In this document: piece by piece, positions 20,388 through 42,679 of the stretch
How the letters are laid out: every line of letters begins with the position of its first letter
Numbering within the stretch: the stretch's first letter is position 1
Source: a virus
Taxonomy: Duplodnaviria; Caudoviricetes
Reading direction: 5' to 3' (one strand)
Virus record (IMG/VR): IMGVR_UViG_3300012899_000001
Coordinates: 1-50,180 of that record
DNA length: 50,180 nt
Translations under genes and position numbers: made by a program
The notes under the pieces: model-generated
Told to the model about the DNA's origin: nothing
Databases searched by the model: none
Seen by the model: the letters and a program-made list of their open reading frames with translations, nothing else

Positions 20388-22631
20388 TCATGCCTCGGCT
20401 GATTCCGCCGACGCGGGCTCCTTGGTGCCCATCGCCTTGGCGACGGCCTCCTGGACCACGTTGGCCAACACCTGGTTGCGCTGGGCCTCGCCCTCGCGCT
20501 GGCTGATCGCCTGCTCGCGCGCGAGCTGGACCTCCAGGTCCGCTTTGCCTTGCGCCGCGATCTTGGTCATCTCGAGCTGCTGCTGGGCCTGCATGGCCTC
20601 CTGCTGCGCGGCGGCCTGCGCCTTCTGGCTCGCGTCGAGCTCCTCGTCGGTGGGCACGCATTCGGCCGGCAACTCGAGCGCGGCCGCGGTCTCGCGCAGG
20701 ATGACCGCGCGGTACTTGGCCGTGATGATCTGGGCGTCGATGGGGTTCGCCGTCAGCTGCAGGAACTGCAGGCGGTTGGCCTGCGCGGCCTGCTTGATCA
20801 GGATCGCCGCGGCGCCGCGCGGCACCACGACGCAGTCGCCCTTGATGCTCGTGTCGGGGTTGTAGATCATTTCGTTGATGAACGTCTTGCCGATCGTGCG
20901 GCTGACCGCGTTCAGGTCGACGTTGCTGATCGCGCGGCGCAGGCCCTTGGCCGCGTTCGCCATCAGCATGCCCAGGCCGCTGGCCGTGTCGGCGCTGCCG
21001 CCGGCGCGCTCGTTGCCGTAGGTGTAGCGCGGGATGCCGGTGGCGTCATCCGCCTTGATCTCCCACTTCTCGTAGTTCGCCATGAGCGAGCCCGAGTTGT
21101 CCGCGGCCTGGAAGAAGCCGATGCCGGGCGCGGCTTGGCCGGCGGCCTGCGGGTCGCTCTTGAGCTGCCAGATTTTCCACGGGAAGATTTCCATGGTCTG
21201 CTCGCCATCGGCGAACCGATCGGCGTGCACCCAGACCATCGGGCCGCTGGCCATCGACATGTTGTCGGCCATGGCGCTGGCGAACTGGTTGCACATGCGC
21301 TGGCTCACCGACGCGAGATCAGGGATCGAGCGGCCCCAGAAGGCGCCCGGGATCTCGTCGTAGCAAGCCTTCCAGTACGGGCGCTCGTGCAGCGGGTCCG
21401 AGTTCAGCGTGGCGTACAGCACGTAGCTGCCACACAGCAACACGTTGCACTCGTACTCGCAGGTCTCGTCCAGCGGCGCGCCGTCCTTGCCGGAGACGCC
21501 CCAGGTCATGAGCTTCCAGCCGGGAACACTACCCCAGTAGTTGAGCGCGTCGATCGTACCCTGCGGCGACAGCCACATGAACATCGTCTCCTGCTCCAGG
21601 CGCTGACGCTCGGCCTCGGTCCACATCCAGTTGTCGAGCCGGCCGGCGCTGTAGTCCATCAGCGCCTTGTCGATCTGCTCGTCCTGGTAGCCGGGCAGGC
21701 CCTTCAGGTCGTACAGGTCGCTGCGGTGGAAGCGGATGCGCTCGATGAAGTCGCCCTTCTGCGGCGAGGTCGTGTTCGAGGCCGGGAAGCAGTCGAACGG
21801 ACTCACCCGCTCCCACCACGGGATCGGATCGTTCGTCACCTTGGGGGTGAAGTCCGCGTTCCACGACAGCCGGCGGTGGCGCTTGTAGGTGGGGCCCTTC
21901 AGGATCGCGGCCGGATAGGTCACGAAGTCCTCGATGAAGCCGTCCATCGCCGTTTGGTAGTTGCCCTCGGCGAGTCGGTCGGCGATGACCTTCTCCATGC
22001 GCTTGGCGCGCAGCTTCGCCGACCGCTGGTACTCCTCCTCGACCTCGGCGCGGATCTTGATGCCGATGTCCTTGGTGAGGTCGCGGAACTCCTGGGGGGC
22101 CATCACCCCGCCGCCGGCCTGCGCGGTCTGCTGCAGCACCTGCTGGGCCTCGGCGAGCGCCTTCTGCACCACCTGGTTGCGCAGCGGCTGCGGTAGGTCG
22201 GGCAGCGGCGTCGGGTCCACACCCCACGGCTGCTCGCCGGCCGGCAGCAGGATGTCGCGCAGCCACGCCGACGCGGCCCGGCACTTCGTCTCGGTGAGGT
22301 CGGTGAACACCAGGTTCATGCCGCCACCGGACTGCTGGACCTGCTGCACCTCGGCGGCGCTGTACATCTGCCGGCGGGCGCGCAGGCACGCGAGCAGCTT
22401 GCGGTCGATCACGACCTTGGCCAGCTTGTTCTTCTGCCACGCGAGGCGCACGTGCCCGACCAGCTCGGGGACGTTCTCGTCCTCGATGACGACCTCGGGC
22501 TCGGGGAGCTTGTCCGGCGCGTCGCGCTTGGCGAGGTCCGCCAGGCCGAGCTGGCGGATCAAGGGGCTGACGCCACCTGCGCGCGGCGCCGGAGCGGATT
22601 GAGCTGCTGGGGCGGGTGGATTGACGGCCAT
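20388..22631 (-). CDS. portal protein
   Basis: 747 aa; ERVSPFDCFP, PGAFWGRSIPD, ADDATGIPRY, TASGLGMLM motifs. Confidence 0.85.
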   Translation of the reverse strand: MAVNPPAPAAQSAPAPRAGGVSPLIRQLGLADLAKRDAPDKLPEPEVVIEDENVPELVGHVRLAWQKNKLAKVVIDRKLLACLRARRQMYSAAEVQQVQQSGGGMNLVFTDLTETKCRAASAWLRDILLPAGEQPWGVDPTPLPDLPQPLRNQVVQKALAEAQQVLQQTAQAGGGVMAPQEFRDLTKDIGIKIRAEVEEEYQRSAKLRAKRMEKVIADRLAEGNYQTAMDGFIEDFVTYPAAILKGPTYKRHRRLSWNADFTPKVTNDPIPWWERVSPFDCFPASNTTSPQKGDFIERIRFHRSDLYDLKGLPGYQDEQIDKALMDYSAGRLDNWMWTEAERQRLEQETMFMWLSPQGTIDALNYWGSVPGWKLMTWGVSGKDGAPLDETCEYECNVLLCGSYVLYATLNSDPLHERPYWKACYDEIPGAFWGRSIPDLASVSQRMCNQFASAMADNMSMASGPMVWVHADRFADGEQTMEIFPWKIWQLKSDPQAAGQAAPGIGFFQAADNSGSLMANYEKWEIKADDATGIPRYTYGNERAGGSADTASGLGMLMANAAKGLRRAISNVDLNAVSRTIGKTFINEMIYNPDTSIKGDCVVVPRGAAAILIKQAAQANRLQFLQLTANPIDAQIITAKYRAVILRETAAALELPAECVPTDEELDASQKAQAAAQQEAMQAQQQLEMTKIAAQGKADLEVQLAREQAISQREGEAQRNQVLANVVQEAVAKAMGTKEPASAESAEA

Positions 22632-22683: not shown

Positions 22684-22708
22684 GCAAGAGACCCCTTGCG
22701 GGGCCTCA
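22684..22708 (-). terminator. putative terminator closing the ncRNA array
   Basis: GAGGCCCC-GCAA-GGGGTCTC followed by a weak TTGCATTT tail. Confidence 0.55.
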
Positions 22709-22878
22709 GGGCAGGTTACCAGTCGTCCTGCGTCGGTGCGCGGAGCCGACGGGTGGCCCCAGGCTTACTCGGGCGGGCCGCCGGCGCCGTGCCGACACGA
22801 TCATGCGCACGTCCACCAGTCGCCTGCATGCTCGGCCGCTGGTGCTCCACCAGCCCGTGCTACGGCTGGCGGAGTTCA

Positions 22879-22956
22879 TGGTCTGGGTGGCAGGATTTGA
22901 ACCTGCGACAACTCGCTTCCAGGGCGAGGACTCTGGCCGGACTGAGCTACACCCAG
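22879..22956 (-). tRNA. tRNA-Pro(UGG) with atypical C33/A37
   Basis: Full cloverleaf: CTGGGTG/CACCCAG acceptor, A73, CCA, TTCAAAT T-loop, anticodon loop CCTGGAA. Confidence 0.85.
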
Positions 22957-22962
22957 ATTGAA

Positions 22963-23081
22963 GATGGTGGCCGGCGCTGATCTCCGGCTTTGCACTCGTT
23001 ACGCCGTTACCGGCAAGCGTGACCTATTTCGTCCGTGCCCGCACGCCAGGGCACTGCGCATCAGCCTACGCATTCACCATC
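22963..23081 (-). ncRNA. C4-like antisense RNA
   Basis: GATGGTGAATGCGTAGGCTGATGCGC ... GCCGGAGATCAGCGCCGGCCACCATC matches the C4 motif ends as I recall them. Confidence 0.75.
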
Positions 23082-23229
23082 ACGACTGCGAGCCGGGCCG
23101 ACGTCTCACTCGCCGGTAACCGTACCCTCGCTTGACTGAACTCGGCCGGCCTGATGGGGCCGGTTGCGTTCCTCGGTTCGACTTGCCGCTGATCAGGCGC
23201 CGTCAACTCGACTCGCAGTCGTCATGGTG
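23075..23229 (-). ncRNA. long-stem structured RNA
   Basis: 29-bp closing stem with 2 mismatches and 3 G-U pairs that form only on the minus strand. Confidence 0.6.
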
Positions 23230-23301
23230 TGGTGGACCGCGTCGGTGTCGAACCGACCAGGGATGGCTTGCAGGGCCTTCCTGCGCTCCGGCGCGCAGCC
23301 C
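23230..23301 (-). tRNA. non-canonical tRNA-Ala(UGC)-like RNA with minimal D-arm
   Basis: GGGCTGC/GCGGTCC acceptor with G3:U70, A73, CCA; T-arm GTCGG-TTCGACA-CCGAC; loop CCTGCAA. Confidence 0.65.
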
Positions 23302-23310
23302 AAGAGAAAG

Positions 23311-23387
23311 TGGTTGCGGGTTGGAGATTTGAACTCCCGACCTTCAGGGTATGAACCTGCTGCTCTTCCGGGCTGAGCTACCCCGCA
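23311..23387 (-). tRNA. tRNA-Met(CAU), fMet-like acceptor, several mismatches
   Basis: TGCGGGG...ACCCGCA-A-CCA, anticodon loop TTCATAC, TTCAAAT T-loop. Confidence 0.8.
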
Positions 23388-23394
23388 ACGGGAA

Positions 23395-23688
23395 TCAGGT
23401 GCTGGGGCACATGCGCCAGCTGTTCTCGATTCGCGGCGCCTCCCGGCGGATCTTGCGCAGCACGAAGGACTTGGCAGCCACCAGCAGTACGGCCGGGCGC
23501 TTCAGCAGCCGGTTGGCGTGCAGCTTGGCCAGCAGGCGGTCGACCACGTGCTTGAACGTGTCCTTGACCCAGCGATAGGTCTCGACGACCGCGAGGCGCG
23601 CCGTGGTCGCGATGCCGGTGCAGAAGCCACAGAAGGCGAGGGCCATGCCCAGCAGGAACATCACGCTCGATCGGAGGAAGGATTTCAT
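23395..23688 (-). CDS. hypothetical protein heading the ncRNA array
   Basis: GGAG RBS; hydrophobic N-terminus, basic C-terminus ending WRMCPST. Confidence 0.6.
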   Translation of the reverse strand: MKSFLRSSVMFLLGMALAFCGFCTGIATTARLAVVETYRWVKDTFKHVVDRLLAKLHANRLLKRPAVLLVAAKSFVLRKIRREAPRIENSWRMCPST

Positions 23689-23740: not shown

Positions 23741-23768
23741 ACTGTAGCAGATGATGCGCTAAACGCAA
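23741..23768 (-). promoter_or_regulatory. putative sigma70 promoter for the ORF+ncRNA array
   Basis: TTGCGT-16 nt-TACAGT with TGn extended -10. Confidence 0.5.
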
Positions 23769-23776
23769 CCCCTCGT

Positions 23777-25318
23777 TCAGGCGGACCGCGACCACACCAC
23801 CGTGCGCCGCTGCACCGGGCGCACTTTCGCGTTCGTGAACTTGCGCTCGATCAGGTCGGGCGCAAAGCTGATGGCCAGCGAGTCGGCGCGGTCAGGCGAT
23901 TTCACGCCGGCCTTCTTCAGGTCCTTCTTCGCTTGCAGCTGGATGCGGAACTTGGCGTCATAGAAGTAGTCGAGCGCGGTCAACTCCTCGGCCAGGTCGT
24001 CGTTGTCCGGGATCTGCCCCGTCTCGAGCCACTCGCGCATGCGGCCCCAGCACTCGGCGCGCTGGTTCGAGTACGCCTTGTCGTCCTTGGCGGGCTGGCC
24101 CCACTGCAGCGGGATCAGCGTGGGCAGCCCGTTCATGCGCCGCAGCGTGCTGTCCAGGTCGGCGCCGTTGCCGATCGCGTCGTACACGATGCAGCTGATC
24201 GTCTTCTCCTGGCGCACCAGCTCGAAAATGCGCCCGCCCAGGTCCACGCCGTCGAAGCCCGACAGCGCGATCTGGTAGTGCACCTTGATGCCCTGGCGCA
24301 GCGTGATCACGCTGAAGTCGTCGCCGAAGCGCGCCGGGTCCACCGACAGGATCTTCGGGTACGCCTGGTACGCGGTGAGCCCGACGACGCGCCGGCGCGC
24401 GTTGAACACGAGCTCGGCCGAGATGAAGTTCGAGAAGCCCGCGCGCGGGAACTCTCCCTTCACGCGCACCCGCACGAAGTCGCTGTCCTCGCCGTACTCG
24501 ATGATCCATGTCTGGATCTGCTTCTTGTTGGAGAAGCTCACCGTGCGGCTGTCCACCCGCGAGTACGTGTTGCTGCGGCGGTCGCTCACCTCGATCAGGC
24601 CGCTCTCGGCCGACCAGCGCTTGCCCGGCTGCGAGCAACGCTTGAAGAACGCACCGGACGTCTTCGTCGGGTTGCCGTAGCGCAGCCAGATGATCTCGGT
24701 GTTCGCGTCGGTGAGCGCCCCCTCGGTGACCTCCCAGATGAGGTCGTCGATCGCCGACGCCTCGTCGAAGACCACCAGCAGGCGCTTGCCCTGGTTGTGC
24801 AGGCCGGCGAACGCCTCGGACTTCTCCTTCGACCACGGGATCGCGTCCAGGCGCCAGCTCTTCTCGCGCACCGGGTCGTCGGCGATGTGCAGCGCCGTCG
24901 CCGTGAACGTGAACAGCGAGCGCGCGATGAACAGGCCGTACCACTTGCCGAGCTCGGCCCATGTCTTCGTGCGCAGCTGGCTCTCCGTGTTCGCCGTCAC
25001 CACGCCGCGCGTGTCGGCGCACGTGCTGACCGCCCACAGCATCATCCACGACACCATCGCCGACTTCCCGATGCCGTGGCCCGACGACACGTCCTCCTGG
25101 ATCACGTCGCCCGTCTCGGCGGCGCCTGCGCGCAGCCTGTCGCCGATGCGCGTGAGCTGCGCGGTCTGCCAGTCCTCGGGCCCCGTCATGTCCTCGAGCG
25201 ACGTGTTCGGCTCGCCCCACGGGAACGCCCACATCACGAAGCCGAGCGGGTCGTGGCGGTAGCGCGCCAGGCCGTCCATCAGCTCGTCGATGGGCGTGTT
25301 CTTCACTCGCGTTGCCAT
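23777..25318 (-). CDS. terL: terminase large subunit
   Basis: Walker A SSGHGIGKS, Walker B VVFDEAS, GNPT, nuclease DPARFGDD and SPDRADS; in-frame extension to 25495 possible. Confidence 0.9.
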   Translation of the reverse strand: MATRVKNTPIDELMDGLARYRHDPLGFVMWAFPWGEPNTSLEDMTGPEDWQTAQLTRIGDRLRAGAAETGDVIQEDVSSGHGIGKSAMVSWMMLWAVSTCADTRGVVTANTESQLRTKTWAELGKWYGLFIARSLFTFTATALHIADDPVREKSWRLDAIPWSKEKSEAFAGLHNQGKRLLVVFDEASAIDDLIWEVTEGALTDANTEIIWLRYGNPTKTSGAFFKRCSQPGKRWSAESGLIEVSDRRSNTYSRVDSRTVSFSNKKQIQTWIIEYGEDSDFVRVRVKGEFPRAGFSNFISAELVFNARRRVVGLTAYQAYPKILSVDPARFGDDFSVITLRQGIKVHYQIALSGFDGVDLGGRIFELVRQEKTISCIVYDAIGNGADLDSTLRRMNGLPTLIPLQWGQPAKDDKAYSNQRAECWGRMREWLETGQIPDNDDLAEELTALDYFYDAKFRIQLQAKKDLKKAGVKSPDRADSLAISFAPDLIERKFTNAKVRPVQRRTVVWSRSA

Positions 25319-25494
25319 CAGCTCAGCCTCTCTCACAGGGATCTGGTCGAGGCGGGTGCCGTCCTTCCAGATGTTGGCGCACGTGCGCTTGCTCGGCACC
25401 ACGTTGTTGCGCAGCGCGTTGAAGCGTGGATCCCGGACGGCGCCCACCGCCTCCCGGTCGCGGCGCTCCGTTTCTGTCGTGTGCTGCCGGCGCA

Positions 25495-26187
25495 TCAGAA
25501 CAGGTCGTCATCGGCCGTGGTCTCTTCGGCCGTGGCGGGTTCGGCGTCGATGTCGAAAACGTCCTCGAACGGCTCGCCGGCGCCCTCGTCGAACGCATCC
25601 TCCGGCCCCACCAGCACCCGGCGCACCGGCACCTCCTCGACCGGCTGCAACGGCTCACGCCGCTTGGCGGCGTTCAGCCGGTCGGCCAGCGCCGACGCCA
25701 GCGCGTTCATGCCGTCGCCCTCGTCGTTCACCAGCTTGAAGTGCTTGGCCAGCAGGCCCAGCGCGTCCATCTTCGAGGCGAACTTGATCTTGATCACGTC
25801 GACGTAGTCGGGCTCCTTCAACGACCCCACGTTCTTCGTCTGCACCGTGATGCTCGTGATCGCCGCGGCCGTGTCGTCGTCGATCTCGTGGATCGGCAGA
25901 AGCTGCCCTTGCTTGTTGAAGATACGCCGCACGTCGGCGTAGGCCACGCGCGCGATCTCCCGCTTCGTGCGCTCCGCCGTGACTCCGGCGGCCTGCAGGC
26001 GCTGCGCGACCAGCGTGCGCACCCGCTCGACCATGCCGGGCGCCTTGGCCAGCTTCAGGTAGTTGTTCGGTGCGTGCGACAGGCCCATCTGCGTCAGGGC
26101 CTCTCGCGAGGTCAGGCCGTTCGCGATGTGCTGCGCGAATTCCTCCTGGCGCGCCGCGTCGATGAGTTCCCGTTGGGCGGACGTCAT
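25495..26187 (-). CDS. terS: terminase small subunit
   Basis: EIARVAYAD, LLPIHEIDDDTAAAI, KMDALGLLAKH motifs; upstream of terL. Confidence 0.8.
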   Translation of the reverse strand: MTSAQRELIDAARQEEFAQHIANGLTSREALTQMGLSHAPNNYLKLAKAPGMVERVRTLVAQRLQAAGVTAERTKREIARVAYADVRRIFNKQGQLLPIHEIDDDTAAAITSITVQTKNVGSLKEPDYVDVIKIKFASKMDALGLLAKHFKLVNDEGDGMNALASALADRLNAAKRREPLQPVEEVPVRRVLVGPEDAFDEGAGEPFEDVFDIDAEPATAEETTADDDLF

Positions 26188-26667
26188 AGGCGATTTTCGA
26201 TTTTCAAAAATCAAAAATTTTTCAGGAGGTCGACGAATCGTGGTGCACGAATCGCGAGTCCCCACCCCCACACCTTAAATTCCCCGATCGGGATCCACAA
26301 CCTGCAATCCACTGCGGATCGCGGGTCGGGGATCTCGATTTGGAAATCGGGGTTCTCTGGGGTGTGCATATTCAAGGGGGTGTGCCCCCTATGCTCAATC
26401 GCGGGCTGCCCCGGGGGTGGGGTAGCCTTGTGACGGCGCGAGGGCCTTGCGCTGCGCATCGGGCATGCCCTGCACCACCTCAGCAGCCCGGGCCGCGCCG
26501 GTCGCCTCGCTGGTCGATCGTGCATTGCCACAGCCCGTGGCTTGCGCCCGGAAGCGGGTCGGCGGCACGGCGTACTGCTGGTGAGTCGTCGGGGTGGCTT
26601 TCATGGGTCGTTCTCCTGTCGTTGCGGGGTGAAATGGGTTTAGCACCCAACGCACTACATAGGTAGC

Positions 26668-27381: not shown

Positions 27382-27572
27382 CCTTTCACTCACCAACAGG
27401 AGCTACCAAATGTCCGAACACCAAGCCAATCCCATCCTCGCGGAAACCCCGCCGACGCCCAGCTGGGCGCAGCCCTCGCGCTGCAAGCGGCCGCAGCACC
27501 TGACGGTGCTTGCGCGCTTGCTGCTGTGGCTCACGCACTGAGCCACCCACACCACATCACAAGGATCACACC

Positions 27573-28040
27573 ATGGCTGACTCTATCAACCACACTGACG
27601 ACATCATCGACGTGCGCGATGTGATTGCGCGCGTGGAAGAACTGCGCAATGAACGCGACACGCTCGATACCGCGCTCGAAGAAGCGGACGAAGCCCTCGA
27701 CGGCACGCTCGAACTCGCTGACGCGAAGCATGATGCTCAAACCGCGCTTGACGAGTGGAATCTGGACAACAGCGAAGAACTCGAAGAACTCGAAAGCCTG
27801 CTGGACGACCTGAAGGGCTACGGCGGGGATGAACAGTGGGAAGGCTCTTGGTATCCCGTGACCCTCATCCGCGAATCGCATTTCGAGGATTACGCGCAAC
27901 AGCTGGCCACTGATATTGGCGCGATCGATGAGAGCTCATCCTGGCCGAACAACTGCATCGACTGGGAGCGTGCTGCACGCGAGCTCAAGATGGATTACAG
28001 CGAAGTCGAGTTCAAGGGCGTCACCTTTTTCTACCGCTGA
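27573..28040 (+). CDS. highly acidic ArdA-like putative anti-restriction protein
   Basis: Very D/E-rich; FEDYAQQL...CIDWERAAREL resembles the ArdA C-terminal motif. Confidence 0.5.
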   Translation: MADSINHTDDIIDVRDVIARVEELRNERDTLDTALEEADEALDGTLELADAKHDAQTALDEWNLDNSEELEELESLLDDLKGYGGDEQWEGSWYPVTLIRESHFEDYAQQLATDIGAIDESSSWPNNCIDWERAARELKMDYSEVEFKGVTFFYR

Positions 28041-30275: not shown

Positions 30276-32689
30276 TGCCTTCTCGCCCACCTTTTCAGGA
30301 CGGTCTTACCGACTCGCGTGTCCTTTTTCTCGTACCCCAAGCTGCGCAGCACCGCCCCGCACCGCGTCTGCGCCTTCATGTCCACCTCCTTCACGGACAT
30401 GCCCAGCGCCCCGCACAGGACATCCAGAACCGCGAAAGGTGATTCGCCCCGCCCCGCCCCAGCGGAAGCGGCACCTGAGTCATCCAGCGCGTCATTTCCG
30501 TCCAGCCACGCCTGGATCGGCGCCTCCCACTCGTCTGTGCGCCTGTAGCCCTCGTGCTCGGCCTTGGCAAGCTCCTCGGCGTCCCTCCACGCCACCCCAC
30601 CGCCCCACCCCGGCACCAGGCCGTCGAAGAGAGCGGCGCCTTCCGCCCACAGTTGCTCCCGGGCCGCGTCGATGCCCTCCACGTCCGCCCGTGTCACGTG
30701 CACCGGCAGCCACCGCCTGTTACCTGTCTCATCCACCAGGAGGTCGGTGCGGTTGGTCGTGCCGAACAGCACGCAGCGCCGCGGGAACACCGTGCTGAAT
30801 TCCTTGAACTTGGGCACCCACTTCTCGTAGCGCCGGCTGATCCAGGCCTTGATCGACTCCTGGTCCTTCGTCTGCAGCCCGCGCAGCTCGCTGATCTCCC
30901 CCACGAGCGACCCGCGCAGCAAGCGCGCCAGCGTGTCGTCGTCCTTGCTCAGGTCGATCTCGGTGAAGAACATGCGGTCGGGGACCATGGCCGCGAGCGC
31001 GCTGGTCTTGCGCAGGCCCTGGTCACCTTCCAGGATCGGGGCCATGTCCGCCTGGCAGCCAGGCGAGATCACCCGCCCGGCCATCGCGGTCCAGATGTAG
31101 CGCGACACCGCCCGGGTATACGGCGTGTCGGTGCAACCGAAGAAATCGCGCAGGAACGTGTCCACGCGCCGCACGCCATCCCAGCACGTGGACACGCCAT
31201 CCAGCCACAACCGGGCGCTGTCGAACTGGTTCTCGTCGGCCACCAGCACCATCGCGTCGCGGGCCAGCTCCTTCGGGGCCGACTTGAACCTCTTCTGCTC
31301 GAGCTTGATCCGCAGCCGCACGATGTCGGCGTCGGTGATGTTGCGCCACTGGTTCTGTGCCCCGGCGGGCGCCACCATGATCTCGTCGCGGAACGTGTCG
31401 TGCGCGACCTGCATCCCCACCTCCCACTCGTCGCGGATCGCCTTGACGGCGTTCTCGACACTCGCGATGACGACGCCGGTCTTCTTCTCGCGGCTGTACG
31501 TGGGCTGCTCCCAGCTGTCGGGGCGGCTCGCCACCACCCTGGCCGCAGGCGCTGCCAGATCGCGGCTTGGCAGGGCTGCCTGACCTGCACCTCCTGCCGT
31601 TTTGTGCTGCTCCTGCACCTCCAGCCGCACCGCAGCCGCTCCCTCAGGCTCGAAGCCATCGTCGTCGGGCTCGGCATGCGTCGCCGGGTTCACCCAGCCG
31701 GCCTGGGCAGCGGCCTTGAACAGGGTGGCCGCGGTGATGCCGCCGGCGCGGTGCTGGTCGGCGTACGACCACACCTTCGCCTCGGCGTAGCCCGGCACGT
31801 GCTTGGCGCTGCGCGAGCTCCACGCCTCCACCCGGTCCAGGCCCTCCTGGCTGCCGCCCGTGGCCCAGTGCACGGCGTAGATGAGGTCGCGCCAGCGGTC
31901 GTACTCGAGGCCGTCACCGGTGTTGTCGACGGCGTCGAGCGCGGCCCACAGCACCGGCAGCTCGGCCTCGGGCAGGCCGGGCTCGCGCGCGGCGCGGTCG
32001 ACGACGGGTCGCTCGGCCACCGGCACAGCCGGTGAGCTGGCCCAGCACCGCGCCACGCGATCGGCGCTTACGCCCACCAGCATCGCCGACAGGTCGTCGA
32101 GTACCAGCAGCTCGGACTTGGCGGCCAGGGGGAGGACGAACATGCTGCCGTATGCCGGCTTGAGCTCGCCCTTGCGCATCACTTCGTGCGGGACGTGGTC
32201 CTGCTTCGGGAACACCTCGACGGCGCGGTCCTGCACGCCGCCCGTGCCGTCGCGCAAGCCGCAGTCCAACAGCACGCGCTTGAGGAACTGGCGCACGCTG
32301 TACGCGTCCTGGGGCTCGTCCCACAGCAGGTACAGGTGCACGCCGTTGCCGCCGGAGCTGCGGAACAGGATCGGCTCCATGCCCCAGGCGAGCACCAGCT
32401 GGTCGACGACGGCGCCCACCACCAGCGACATGGCCGGCCAGGTGACGTCGCCCTTGTGGCTGTCGAAGTCGAGCAACCCGACCAGCGTGACGGACTCCCC
32501 CGCCTTGATCGGGCACACGCCGCGCGCCGGGCCGCCATTGAGGTGCTGGGCCAGGCGATCGCGCGTCAACGGCTGCGTGGTCCACGCGGCCGGCTGGCCG
32601 GGACGGCGCACCGCGGTGGCGTCGGTGCGCACGCGATCGACGAGAGGCTGCAGCGCGTCGATGAGAGGGTTGGTGGTGTCGTGGGTCAT
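30272..32689 (-). CDS. primase-helicase (AEP-like primase + PriCT-2 + VapE/VirE P-loop domain)
   Basis: LLDFDSH, SSGGNGVHLY, YDRWRDL...WSSRSAKH, GDQGLRKTS, FGTTN, DETGNRRW motifs. Confidence 0.85.
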   Translation of the reverse strand: MTHDTTNPLIDALQPLVDRVRTDATAVRRPGQPAAWTTQPLTRDRLAQHLNGGPARGVCPIKAGESVTLVGLLDFDSHKGDVTWPAMSLVVGAVVDQLVLAWGMEPILFRSSGGNGVHLYLLWDEPQDAYSVRQFLKRVLLDCGLRDGTGGVQDRAVEVFPKQDHVPHEVMRKGELKPAYGSMFVLPLAAKSELLVLDDLSAMLVGVSADRVARCWASSPAVPVAERPVVDRAAREPGLPEAELPVLWAALDAVDNTGDGLEYDRWRDLIYAVHWATGGSQEGLDRVEAWSSRSAKHVPGYAEAKVWSYADQHRAGGITAATLFKAAAQAGWVNPATHAEPDDDGFEPEGAAAVRLEVQEQHKTAGGAGQAALPSRDLAAPAARVVASRPDSWEQPTYSREKKTGVVIASVENAVKAIRDEWEVGMQVAHDTFRDEIMVAPAGAQNQWRNITDADIVRLRIKLEQKRFKSAPKELARDAMVLVADENQFDSARLWLDGVSTCWDGVRRVDTFLRDFFGCTDTPYTRAVSRYIWTAMAGRVISPGCQADMAPILEGDQGLRKTSALAAMVPDRMFFTEIDLSKDDDTLARLLRGSLVGEISELRGLQTKDQESIKAWISRRYEKWVPKFKEFSTVFPRRCVLFGTTNRTDLLVDETGNRRWLPVHVTRADVEGIDAAREQLWAEGAALFDGLVPGWGGGVAWRDAEELAKAEHEGYRRTDEWEAPIQAWLDGNDALDDSGAASAGAGRGESPFAVLDVLCGALGMSVKEVDMKAQTRCGAVLRSLGYEKKDTRVGKTVLKRWARRQ

Positions 32690-33825
32690 GGCAGGCACTC
32701 CATCACGACGCTGATCCACTCGACGGCTTGCGGCGCGACGATCGCGTTGCCGTAGGCGCGCAGTCGTCCCACTCGGCTGGTAGCCCCATGAGCCAGCGGC
32801 TGTGTGCCGGGTTCAACTGGCCGCCACTTGCCGTCCCGGAGGAAGATCCAATCCGCATCTCGCCAGAAGCCGTCAGTCGGGCGGGCCCCCGCCATCCGCT
32901 GCTGATCACGTCGCCCATCGACCAGTTCGCGAGTTGCGCCTGATGCGCCAACATCGTCGGCGCGCTGTTGCCCGTCTTGGCGATAGACCTCGCCACGTAG
33001 GCTTCCCCCGACCCGCCCGGCTCGCTCGCCGTCGGCGTGCCCCAGCCCGCCAGCATCGCCACCTCGTTCAGCGGTCTCGAGTTCTTGCCGTGCAAGTTGG
33101 AGTCGCCCGACTTCCAGTCGCGCGCCGCCGCCGTTGGCCAGCTCGCGAGCACCGCTGCGTGGTTGAGCGTGATGTTCGATGTCGCGAAGTCCTCCGACGG
33201 GTGCCGCAGCGAGTCGCTGACCGCGGTCGTGGGCCAGCTCGCGAGCACCGCAGCTCCAGCCAGATTCGGATTGCCGCGCAGGTACCGCTTCGGCGTCGAC
33301 TCTCGTGCGTTGGCCATCGGCGAGGGCCACGAAGTACAGGCGGTCTCGGATGTGCGGAGCACCGACGCTCGCAGCCGGAAACGGGATCGCCCCGAAGGCG
33401 TAACCCATGCCTTCCAGGTCATCTTGAACAAGGTCGAGCCAAGGCATTGCGTCCTTGCTCGCAACCTGCTCTCCAAGGACGACTGGAGGGTGGCACTGGT
33501 CGATGAGGTGGTACCAGAAGGGCCACAGATGCCGCTCGTCAGCAAGCCCGCGGCCTTGACCTGCATCGGAGAAAGGCTGGCAAGGACACGATCCAGTCCA
33601 AACGCGTCTCTCATCACGCCAACCAGCTCGTCGGAGGGCGTGCGACCACACACCAAGGCCGGCAAAGAAATGGCACTGAGTGAAGCCTTGAAGGTCGTAT
33701 GGTCGAACGTCTGCGATGCTGCGTTCATCAACGTATCCCGGTGCGATGTGGCCGGCGGCCACGAGGTTGCGCAGCCACTGGGCCGCGTAGGAGTCGAGCT
33801 CGTTGTAGTAGGCCCAGTGCGTCAC
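32686..33825 (-). CDS. DNA cytosine-5 methyltransferase (alpha polypeptide)
   Basis: FFAGLG (I), GSCPCQPFS (IV), GEQV (VI), [10 protein letters not shown] (VIII), YGNAI (X); motif IX not seen in this frame. Confidence 0.85.
32703..33731 (-). CDS. nested alternative-frame ORF, putative C5-MTase beta polypeptide
   Basis: 342 codons open inside the MTase; WPT-type repeats and motif IX-like [13 protein letters not shown]; true start uncertain. Confidence 0.65.
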
Positions 33826-40993: not shown

Positions 40994-41211
40994 GCAAGAT
41001 CAACATCAACGAGCCGGGATGGCCCGTCCAGTACACGATGACCTTCGCGGTCGTCATCAGCATCGGCGACAACACTAAGCAGCACGAGCTCCTCGTGCGC
41101 GACGCGGTGCGCCGGGCGCTGATCGAAGCGCTGCCGCCGGGCACCGGCGTCGGTGAGGTCTGCTCGACGATCGGGTTCACCGACGCGTACAAGAAGGCGG
41201 ACGCCAAGTGA
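40990..41211 (+). CDS. hypothetical protein
   Basis: TTG start after GGAGG; overlaps both neighbours. Confidence 0.5.
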   Translation: MSKININEPGWPVQYTMTFAVVISIGDNTKQHELLVRDAVRRALIEALPPGTGVGEVCSTIGFTDAYKKADAK

Positions 41212-41801
41212 AGCAGACCATCCTCGCCACGTCACTGGCTCAGGCGTTCCACGAGGAGGCGCACGCCAGGCTGTCACCGAGCGGCAGCAAGAAGTGGTTC
41301 GCGTGCCCCGGCAGCCTCACCCTCGAGGAGCCGATCCCGAACACGCCGACGACCTACTCCGACGACGGCACCGCGATGCACGACGTGGCCGCGCAGTGTC
41401 TGATCCATGGCCACGACGCGGACCCGATCATCGGCGACTACATCGTGGTGTCGCTGCCGCAGGAGAAGGAAGTGCGCAAGGTGCGCTTCACCGCGGACAT
41501 GGCCGAGCTGGTGCAGGGCTACGTCGACTCGTGCCGGTTCATGGGCCGCGGCAAGCGCATGTGGGTCGAGCAGCGCGTGAACTTCAGCGAGTTCTGCGGC
41601 GTTGACGACCAGTTCGGCACGGCCGACCTGATCGTGCTGGACGATCTCGGCAACGCGACGTACGAGCTGATCGTCGACGACCTGAAGACCGGGTACACGC
41701 CGGTCGACGTGAAGAAGAACTCGCAACTGATGTGCTACGCCCTCGGCGCGCTGGCCAAGTTGCGTGATGAAGACGGCCAACAGGAAGAGGAGCTGTTCTG
41801 A
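41208..41801 (+). CDS. DUF2800/Cas4-like PD-(D/E)xK exonuclease, N-terminal part
   Basis: HARLSPSGSKKWFACPGS, DGTAMH, VEQRV, FGTAD, DDLKTG, QLMCYALGA. Confidence 0.8.
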   Translation: MKQTILATSLAQAFHEEAHARLSPSGSKKWFACPGSLTLEEPIPNTPTTYSDDGTAMHDVAAQCLIHGHDADPIIGDYIVVSLPQEKEVRKVRFTADMAELVQGYVDSCRFMGRGKRMWVEQRVNFSEFCGVDDQFGTADLIVLDDLGNATYELIVDDLKTGYTPVDVKKNSQLMCYALGALAKLRDEDGQQEEELF

Positions 41802-42679
41802 TGCGCCCCGTCGTTCAATCCAAGCAGGACGCGTTCGAGTGGGCGCGCGAGAAGGGCATCAAGACGATCCGCTTGGTCGTGTACCAGCCGCGCGTCGACG
41901 GCCAGACCGAGTATGTGATGCCGCTCGAGGAACTCGAAGCGTTCGCCACCGAGCTGCGGTCGCGGGCCTGCAGCGTCGAGAACGCGCGCCGTGACTACGG
42001 CGTGGTGCCGATCGAGCAGTGGAACAAGGTGTACCTGAACCAGGCGCCGAACGACGTCGAGTGTGCGTTCTGCCGCGCCAAGCCCACGTGCCCGTCCGCG
42101 AATCGCGTGCTCGAGAACTTCATGATGGAAGGCTTCGACGAGATCATCAGCGGCGAGGCCGTGCCGCCGGCCGACCAGCTGCACGAGACCCTCGACCTGA
42201 TCGACAACCACAACGGCCGCGAGGAGCGCCTGGAGCAGCTCAACAAGCTGATGAAGCTCGCGCCGTTCGTCGACGACATGATCACCGCGGTGCGCGCCGA
42301 GGTCGAGCGTGTGCTGCTCGCCGGCGAGGACATGCCGGACTTCGGCCTGGACACCGGGCGCAAAGGTGTGCGCAAGTTCAAGGACGAAGAGGAGGTCGAA
42401 ACGCTGCTCAACAAGCAGATGCGCATCTCGCGCGACCACATCTACAACTACTCGCTGAAGTCGCCGACGCAGCTCGAGAAGCTGACCGAGCCCGGCAAGG
42501 ACGGCGCGCCGCCGATCCTGGGCGAGACGCGCTGGAAGCGCATCGCCGCGCACGTGACGCAGAACGACCCGAAGCCCACCGTACGGCTGAAGTCGCAGAT
42601 CAAGAAACCCTACGTCGTGGAGAAGCCGTCGAACGACGGGTTCGACGCGATCCCCACCGAAGACGAAGAACTTTTTTGA
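41801..42679 (+). CDS. DUF2800/Cas4-like exonuclease, C-terminal part
   Basis: VYQPR, CAFCRAKPTCP, LKSPTQLEK motifs. Confidence 0.75.
   Translation: MRPVVQSKQDAFEWAREKGIKTIRLVVYQPRVDGQTEYVMPLEELEAFATELRSRACSVENARRDYGVVPIEQWNKVYLNQAPNDVECAFCRAKPTCPSANRVLENFMMEGFDEIISGEAVPPADQLHETLDLIDNHNGREERLEQLNKLMKLAPFVDDMITAVRAEVERVLLAGEDMPDFGLDTGRKGVRKFKDEEEVETLLNKQMRISRDHIYNYSLKSPTQLEKLTEPGKDGAPPILGETRWKRIAAHVTQNDPKPTVRLKSQIKKPYVVEKPSNDGFDAIPTEDEELF

Follow-up and report, generated by a model that had tools for sequence, protein, structure and literature searches.

Natural transfer RNAs (tRNAs) with an altered cloverleaf have been described before, and those closest in layout to the RNA studied here come from archaea and from mammalian mitochondria. 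This RNA is encoded in a virus record of 50,180 bases (IMGVR_UViG_3300012899_000001; the whole stretch is called the window below), where a compact, 72-nucleotide (nt) element on the minus strand carries the identity features of tRNA-Ala with the anticodon UGC. Statements about published systems refer to the openly available passages of the papers cited. In those of a 2020 review of non-canonical tRNAs, the anticodon stem is consistently 5 base pairs (bp) long, with 6 bp in tRNA-Pyl and in mitochondrial tRNA-Ser(UCN), and the word phage is never used (PMC7609411).

The tRNA-Pyl of M. alvus (ΔN class) resembles the element in having no connector between acceptor and D-arm, a 4-nt D-loop, an elongated anticodon stem and a 3-nt variable region (PMC7609411). 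A hybrid on this scaffold, with a CGGC D-loop and a UUCGA T-loop, suppresses amber codons in E. coli (PMC6337575), and the CGGC loop recurs in 9 of the 82 members of the family defined below. However, tRNA-Pyl is archaeal, belongs with PylRS and has a 6-bp anticodon stem with a 3' bulge, the anticodon CUA and G73, whereas the element has 7 bp, UGC, G3:U70 and A73. Mammalian mitochondrial tRNA-Ser(UCN) (type I) is similar in its short connector, small D-loop, long anticodon stem and 3-nt variable region, keeps G18G19 and TΨC, and is L-shaped, but it has a 1-nt connector, a 6-bp stem and serine identity, and is organellar.

Three further groups share the setting or the logic of the element rather than its fold. 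The allo-tRNAs (8/4 and 9/3; Mukai et al., PMC5389517), which were tested as amber suppressors in E. coli, are also natural odd cloverleaves, found in tRNA clusters of phages and bacteria and in some cases bearing G3:U70. They differ in that it is the acceptor/T branch that is altered, with long arms like those of tRNA-Sec, whereas the element has a 7/5 branch and a 3-nt variable region and is changed in its D/anticodon domain. Horizontally acquired L-arrays, such as the trn operon of Anabaena, offer the same genomic setting with supernumerary isodecoders; the Anabaena array tRNAs are stress-induced, 23 of 26 are charged, and those tested are found on polysomes (PMC8421152). Nuclease-resistant phage tRNAs follow the same logic of resisting and replacing, but their resistance consists of point changes in a canonical fold, and no rebuilt core is described in the passages available.

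Canonical bacterial tRNA-Ala(UGC) (RF00005) has in common with the element G3:U70, A73, the 7/5 branch, a 7-nt anticodon loop and the distance from anticodon to T-loop. The element is, however, without U8, A9 and the D-loop that bears A14, has seven instead of five anticodon pairs, and measures 72 rather than 76 nt. A tRNA-like domain of transfer-messenger RNA (tmRNA) was considered and rejected: the element has a covarying D-stem, and neither ARAGORN nor Rfam calls a tmRNA. Judged from its sequence, the element is not a canonical tRNA, a tRNA-Pyl, an allo-tRNA or a tmRNA, and likely works as a tRNA-Ala. Its layout was not found described in the full-text literature that is openly available; subscription papers, the account of Cluster M mycobacteriophage tRNAs (Pope 2014) and the supplement of Mukai 2017 may mention it. 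The layout is widespread and conserved and, apparently, undescribed.

The compact tRNA-Ala of the window

The element and its parts are as follows.

23230..23301, minus strand: compact tRNA-Ala(UGC), read 23301→23230; 7-bp acceptor, no linker, 4-bp D-stem with 4-nt loop, 1 nt, 7-bp anticodon stem with 7-nt loop, 3 nt, 5-bp T-stem with 7-nt loop, A73, CCA
23295..23301, minus strand: 5' strand of the acceptor, with G3 (23299) paired to U70 (23236), the identity pair for alanyl-tRNA synthetase (AlaRS)
23283..23294, minus strand: D-arm, 4 bp and a CGGA loop (23290-23287) with the G18G19 equivalent; U8/A9 linker absent
23261..23281, minus strand: anticodon arm with a 7-bp stem, A·A at its centre; 7-nt loop at 23274-23268, UGC 23272-23270, C33
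23241..23257, minus strand: T-arm, 5 bp and a UUCGACA loop, preceded by the 3-nt variable region (23260-23258)
23230..23240, minus strand: acceptor 3' strand, discriminator A73 at 23233 and encoded CCA

Every structural feature that the initial annotation had noted, from G3:U70, A73, CCA and UGC to the short D-arm without U8/A9, the 7-bp stem and C33, is present, and the strand is the minus strand. In RNA coordinates, the acceptor stem (1-7/62-68) is paired at 7/7 positions, including G3:U70 and U5:G68, and the D-stem (8-11/16-19, closed by CGGA) starts immediately after it. A20 is the sole linker before the anticodon stem (21-27/35-41), which has one A·A mismatch and a 7-nt loop containing C32, C33 and UGC. 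The identity features of tRNA-Ala (G3:U70, A73 and an Ala anticodon) stand together with a canonical 7-bp acceptor, 5-bp T-stem, TΨC loop and 3' NCCA; missing from the canonical plan are the 2-nt U8/R9 connector, a 7-11-nt D-loop with A14, a 5-bp anticodon stem and U33.

The minimum-energy fold of the minus-strand RNA is this cloverleaf, with 71% of the ensemble, although the energy alone is non-significant (z -1.38, with 21 of 200 shuffles equally good; the plus strand gives z -0.06). ARAGORN did not call the element, also at relaxed thresholds and in mitochondrial mode, and Rfam gave no match to it at E up to 1; the two programs found only the neighbouring tRNA-Met(CAU) and tRNA-Pro(UGG). 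The covariance model of the family described next scores it at 87.1 bits, by construction.

A conserved family with covarying stems

As the fold energy alone is non-significant, it is the conservation of the homologs, and not the energy, that argues against chance. A first, looser viral pattern returned mostly canonical tRNA-Ala. Because the search patterns held G1-G3, the GG of the D-loop, A37, U70-A73 and part of the T-loop constant, invariance at these positions is not evidence. The viral search recovered 120 stretches in 22 of the 64 parts, which extrapolates to about 370 with chance and canonical matches among them; the GTDB search recovered 120 stretches in 13 of its 64 parts, or an estimated total of about 620. 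Counted across all loci, the strict members number 82, every one distinct and of the same layout: a 7-bp acceptor, no 8/9 linker, a 4-bp D-stem with an NGGN loop, a 7-bp anticodon stem and a 3-nt variable loop.

Thirty-six distinct viral members, among them that of the window, have the exact layout and form a gap-free alignment, in which 96.1% of the 828 cells are paired, compared with 38-47% in slid controls. Double-sided changes occur in 4/4 D pairs and 7/7 anticodon pairs, the D-stem is 100% paired, and the covariation score was reached by none of 500 shuffles. This alignment was itself selected on pairing. In a repeat test selected on acceptor and T pairing only (59 viral and 48 GTDB fixed-length matches), 37 viral and 35 GTDB matches are tRNA-like in that register, and a perfect D-stem with both extra outer anticodon pairs is found in 35 and 32 of these, respectively. 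RNAalifold recovers the same structure and leaves open the central anticodon pair alone; this fourth pair of the stem is unpaired in 32/82 members, as A·A in 22 of them. The claim of the initial annotation that this is a non-canonical RNA of Ala identity, and no chance fold, is borne out by these figures. Simple decay, which the initial annotation had also considered, predicts homologs with full D-arms, and the homologs share the shortened arm instead. On this comparative evidence the fold is under selection, and the element is neither a decayed gene nor a one-off.

The combination of the first D-loop base with T-loop base 59 is C·C or U·U in 65/82 members (37/45 after dereplication at 80%), compared with 10/35 canonical Ala controls, and by corrected mutual information this pair ranks among the stem pairs. 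It matches the C16:C59 and U16:U59 contacts of tRNA-Sec (PMC7609411). This 16:59-like covariation supports a predicted contact between D-loop and T-loop, the GG and TΨC being fixed by the pattern.

Other traits vary. CCA is encoded in 38/82 members, and looser variants have a 1-nt linker, a 5-7-nt D-loop and a 6-8-bp anticodon stem. Position 33 is U in 69/82 members and C in 13/82; C33, which the initial annotation had singled out, is therefore genuine in this copy but no trait of the family. Held-out members score 64-85 bits with the family model, compared with 43-49 for housekeeping tRNA-Ala. ARAGORN already labels about half of the members as ordinary tRNA-Ala (42/82, but 2/13 of those with C33), and RF00005 misses the three family members tested with it.

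Anticodons and versions for other amino acids

Among the 82 strict members, 79 carry UGC, two GGC and one CGC. A full scan for other first anticodon bases gave 46 stretches, 17 of them with perfect acceptor and T stems (13 distinct, with GGC or CGC), and a close relative of the element carries CGC (L431). The scans aimed at non-Ala anticodons yielded 71 parsed and 10 unparsed sequences; one of them, which covered 43/64 parts, largely re-found Ala members because the variable gaps in its pattern slipped. Clean compact matches with G3:U70 never carried a non-Ala anticodon in these scans (0/36, all UGC). In the loci chosen on Ala, the compact fold occurs with 107 UGC and 8 other anticodons, despite about 1750 tRNAs there that are not Ala(UGC).

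The same layout, with a 5-nt NGGAN D-loop, was found in 7 of 93 parsed tRNA-Arg(ACG) sequences, with 6 more unparsed (loci L580, L587, L632, L633, L634, L656 and L683). ArgRS reads the D-loop, where A20 is its determinant, and the NGGAN loop would keep this base. Single candidates of compact layout for Arg(CCU), Val, His and Met were also seen.

Distribution and tRNA arrays

The bacterial members come from Actinomycetes (Lentzea, Kribbella, Plantactinospora and Amycolatopsis), Planctomycetota, Myxococcota and Proteobacteria, and at the loci listed all lie among other tRNA genes. Another tRNA lies within 1.5 kb of the compact gene in 45 of 49 long loci. Five or more are present in 33 loci, and in 4 ARAGORN calls no other tRNA within that distance. 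The compact gene is present in 45/51 genomes of a search of the genus Lentzea and in 16/201 genomes sampled from the family (one of the 16 unpublished). Five Lentzea loci (L250, L259, L271, L279 and L321) hold a short remnant array, Trp-Gly-Leu-Leu-Ala-Ile-Val or subsets of it, at a fixed chromosomal place, which suggests domestication; the genes beside it we take, by eye, to be SUF-like.

In viruses, the compact form is the sole match to the Ala(UGC) pattern in 12/15 records chosen for size or large arrays, and in 8/9 of those at least 90% complete. The cultured Myxococcus phage Mx1 carries an unannotated strict member (OR576727.2, 43750-43821; 84.6 bits), which is the only match of this phage to the Ala pattern. 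When compared by BLAST with cultured phages, the cluster and the 72-mer had canonical tRNA or chance matches only, and BLAST of L158 against phages and of L274 against plasmids gave no match.

Two other kinds of unusual tRNA-Ala were seen. Ala(UGC) genes with an extended anticodon stem and a different odd D region occur in mycobacteriophages of Clusters M and C2 and in a Vibrio phage (L559 2475-2549, Bongo; L560 1475-1550, Myrna; L563 972-1047), and the gene in Bongo lacks an annotation. The Bongo and Myrna genes were not counted as members, since they have the long anticodon stem but a different 5' part, and score 46-51 bits. A second non-canonical type of phage tRNA-Ala occurs at L009, L011, L013, L018-L020, L032, L034, L050 and L051; it measures about 78-79 nt, has G8G9 and a D-loop of 9 nt, and its variable region is longer.

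The RNA cluster between the terminase and portal genes

In the window, the element sits in an RNA cluster between the genes for the terminase large subunit (terL) and the portal protein, all on the minus strand. Starting from terL, an orphan open reading frame (ORF) of 97 amino acids (aa) is followed by tRNA-Met and the element, then by two more structured RNAs, and last by tRNA-Pro, a hairpin and a weak match to a terminator.

23777..25495, minus strand: terminase large subunit, upstream flank (phrog_2, E 7e-34)
23741..23768, minus strand: possible promoter following terL, with an extended -10 (TG-n-TACAGT), noted by eye and under the promoter-scan threshold
23395..23688, minus strand: 97-aa ORF heading the cluster; matches no known family and is covered by contigs of close relatives
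23311..23387, minus strand: canonical tRNA-Met(CAU), upstream of the element by 9 nt (ARAGORN, Rfam)
23082..23222, minus strand: structured multibranch RNA closed by a long stem (fold z -3.43)
22964..23081, minus strand: member of a widespread phage RNA motif, with conserved 5' and 3' hairpins and a variable middle inside a closing stem
22879..22956, minus strand: canonical tRNA-Pro(UGG), downstream of the element (ARAGORN, Rfam)
22688..22707, minus strand: intrinsic-terminator-like hairpin closing the cluster; weak, with 1 found and 0.7 expected by chance
20388..22631, minus strand: portal protein, downstream flank (phrog_332; annotated portal homologs at 24-30% identity)

Since the loci examined in portal relatives hold no tRNA (6/6), the cluster is an insertion, and synteny with these relatives yielded no homolog of the element. 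The relative L570 (terL 63%, portal 62%) has a family member in the gap between terL and portal, the only tRNA call there. The 72 nt are also spanned by contigs of close relatives in two other samples; none of the differences listed falls within this stretch, and the downstream neighbours differ. A sequencing run labelled RNA-Seq, though probably of DNA, did not cover the element and does not bear on its expression.

The structured RNA at 23082-23222 matches nothing in Rfam, and BLAST found no homolog of it among the loci compared. The 23-nt 5' motif of the RNA at 22964-23081 is estimated at about 1200 stretches in phages, and the motif had no Rfam match in 12 loci tested; at locus L203 the same 5' start lies downstream of that locus's own compact Ala tRNA. 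Directly 3' of tRNA-Pro is a perfect 11-bp hairpin followed by ACCA (22841-22879, minus strand, z -5.6), a candidate minihelix-like or processing/stability element. The tRNA-Met(CAU) at 23311-23387 has mixed traits: U1-A72, C11-G24 and just two of the three G-C pairs of the anticodon stem, with an acceptor that we take to resemble the initiator type.

Other observations in the window

On the plus strand, the phrog_69 exonuclease (41208-42679) is split into two abutting ORFs covering profile positions 74-255 and 254-480, a candidate frameshift or natural split. An ArdA-like anti-restriction protein is encoded at 27510-28040 (plus strand; Pfam E 8e-5, below the cut-off; phrog_2059), and a DNA methyltransferase at 32686-33825. 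A long inverted repeat at 26278-26347, just upstream of the terminase small subunit and with a weak, miRNA-shaped Rfam match, is possibly a packaging or regulatory site.

Discussion

We consider it probable that the element is charged and takes part in decoding, as a tRNA-Ala on an alternative scaffold like that of M. alvus tRNA-Pyl. What points to a decoding tRNA is the kept elbow with its covariation, the restriction of anticodon changes to Ala synonyms, the existence of an Arg version and the usual filling of the Ala(UGC) slot of an array. Host AlaRS would charge the element through G3:U70 and A73, and it would then read GCN codons on the ribosome. The absence of nucleotides 8-9 and the small D-loop would be offset by the two extra anticodon pairs, and the geometry predicts a normal L shape. 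The D/anticodon domain of a canonical tRNA has 12 stacked layers, and the compact domain would equal this with 7+1+4 = 12. The compensation proposed here follows the structural-compensation rule of Steinberg and Cedergren, which is cited in PMC4394434. The GG of the D-loop would dock on the T-loop, aided by the pyrimidine pair of 16:59 type, and the RNA would be co-transcribed with tRNA-Met and tRNA-Pro and processed normally.

Why the fold exists is a separate matter. The rebuilt core and anticodon arm may escape host nucleases and toxins that recognize canonical tRNA-Ala, so that the Ala pool could be refilled during infection or stress; we offer this purpose tentatively, as a possibility that is slightly more doubtful than not. 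Toxicity of P2-OLD is rescued by phage tRNAs through cleavage resistance and decoding, not decoying, and anticodon-stem length matters (PMC12445682), while changes in the anticodon loop have been proposed as a general means of nuclease escape (PMC10264068). C33 of the element could be such a change. Cas12a3 binds tRNA-Ala and cuts its CCA tail (PMC12851939), and from a cut at that site the compact fold would not escape.

Several observations weigh against this account. Shared ancestry inflates the covariation counts, and the pattern-fixed bases limit the evidence. C33 is found in 13/82 members, compared with 1/51 canonical Ala tRNAs of the same scans, and together with the A·A mismatch it may lower the decoding efficiency of this copy. 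The open passages of the literature examined name no anti-phage nuclease specific for tRNA-Ala. A canonical tRNA-Ala(UGC) is also present in each of the five complete host genomes checked, which makes the compact gene accessory. In 2/49 loci the array itself contains another Ala(UGC); at a third locus flagged for this, L570, the flag is the compact gene itself. GCA is rare in this phage, with 76 of 997 Ala codons in 15 genes, and codon compensation was set aside as a weak explanation of the role. Finally, two irregular G3:U70 matches carry non-Ala triplets, UUA in L502 and UCU in L443. These two are possibly an ochre suppressor, mistranslating tRNAs or decayed copies.

One alternative keeps the decoding tRNA and makes the layout neutral: an old array lineage drifted to a compensated core and spread horizontally with no benefit in evasion. 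It competes only with the purpose of the fold, and is plausible in that AlaRS reads only the acceptor; the concentration of the fold in Ala (107 UGC and 8 others, in loci chosen on Ala), the intermediate layouts with 0-2-nt linkers and 6-8-bp stems, and a distribution that is patchy in the family (16/201) and fixed in one genus would all fit it. We nevertheless think it rather unlikely, as one exact layout prevails across phyla and unrelated phages, the Arg version exists though ArgRS reads the D-loop, and in L570, a related phage, the compact gene is retained as the one tRNA called in the gap from terL to portal. A decoy shaped like a tRNA, which would titrate nucleases, toxins or sensors that target tRNAs and would decode little, is improbable. 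The anticodon varies only among Ala synonyms, U33 prevails, the compact form usually replaces canonical Ala(UGC) rather than joining it, and a decoy would be expected to resemble its target more, not less; on the other side stand C33 and the A·A mismatch of this copy, and the 4/49 loci with no other ARAGORN tRNA within 1.5 kb.

A charged donor of alanine outside normal decoding, for poly-Ala tailing by RqcH or for tRNA-dependent transferases (cell wall, lipid, natural product), is more improbable again. RqcH selects tRNA-Ala, both isoacceptors, through the anticodon arm (PMC8373112), a selection that would also explain the Ala-only anticodons. Yet the Arg version would be unexplained, G18G19, TΨC and the T-stem are intact, and the neighbours listed for bacterial members look by eye like array passengers or unrelated host genes, with no recurring transferase seen among them by eye (no family scan was run). 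The array-passenger ORFs we take to be HNH-, RtcB- and TROVE-like. As for decay of a tRNA gene, or a role as no more than a processing mark for RNase P, the misses by ARAGORN and Rfam and the non-significant fold energy are what such a gene would give, but this explanation is very improbable and already largely refuted: compensatory changes run through the D and anticodon stems of the whole family, the 72 nt hold none of the differences listed in two close relatives whose downstream neighbours differ, and a processing mark does not need a conserved anticodon. The mimic, decoy or processing signal that the initial annotation had put forward is less well supported than a decoding tRNA-Ala, given the kept elbow, the Ala-synonym anticodons, the Arg version and the usually filled Ala(UGC) slot.

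In its widest form, the proposal is that this is a second natural tRNA architecture for at least Ala and Arg, ribosome-active, invisible to defences that read the core or anticodon arm of canonical tRNAs, overlooked by annotation in about half of the cases, and perhaps sharing an origin with tRNA-Pyl of the M. alvus type; as a whole we regard this as speculative and rather unlikely. If it were true, it would describe a whole-fold route past tRNA-targeting defence and supply tRNA engineering with a ready-made scaffold. With hundreds of natural genes that lack the connector and have an anticodon stem of 7 bp, such a family would widen the range of known tRNA folds and allow the structural-compensation rule to be tested in nature. 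The members missed by annotation show that the tRNA sets of phages and arrays are under-annotated.
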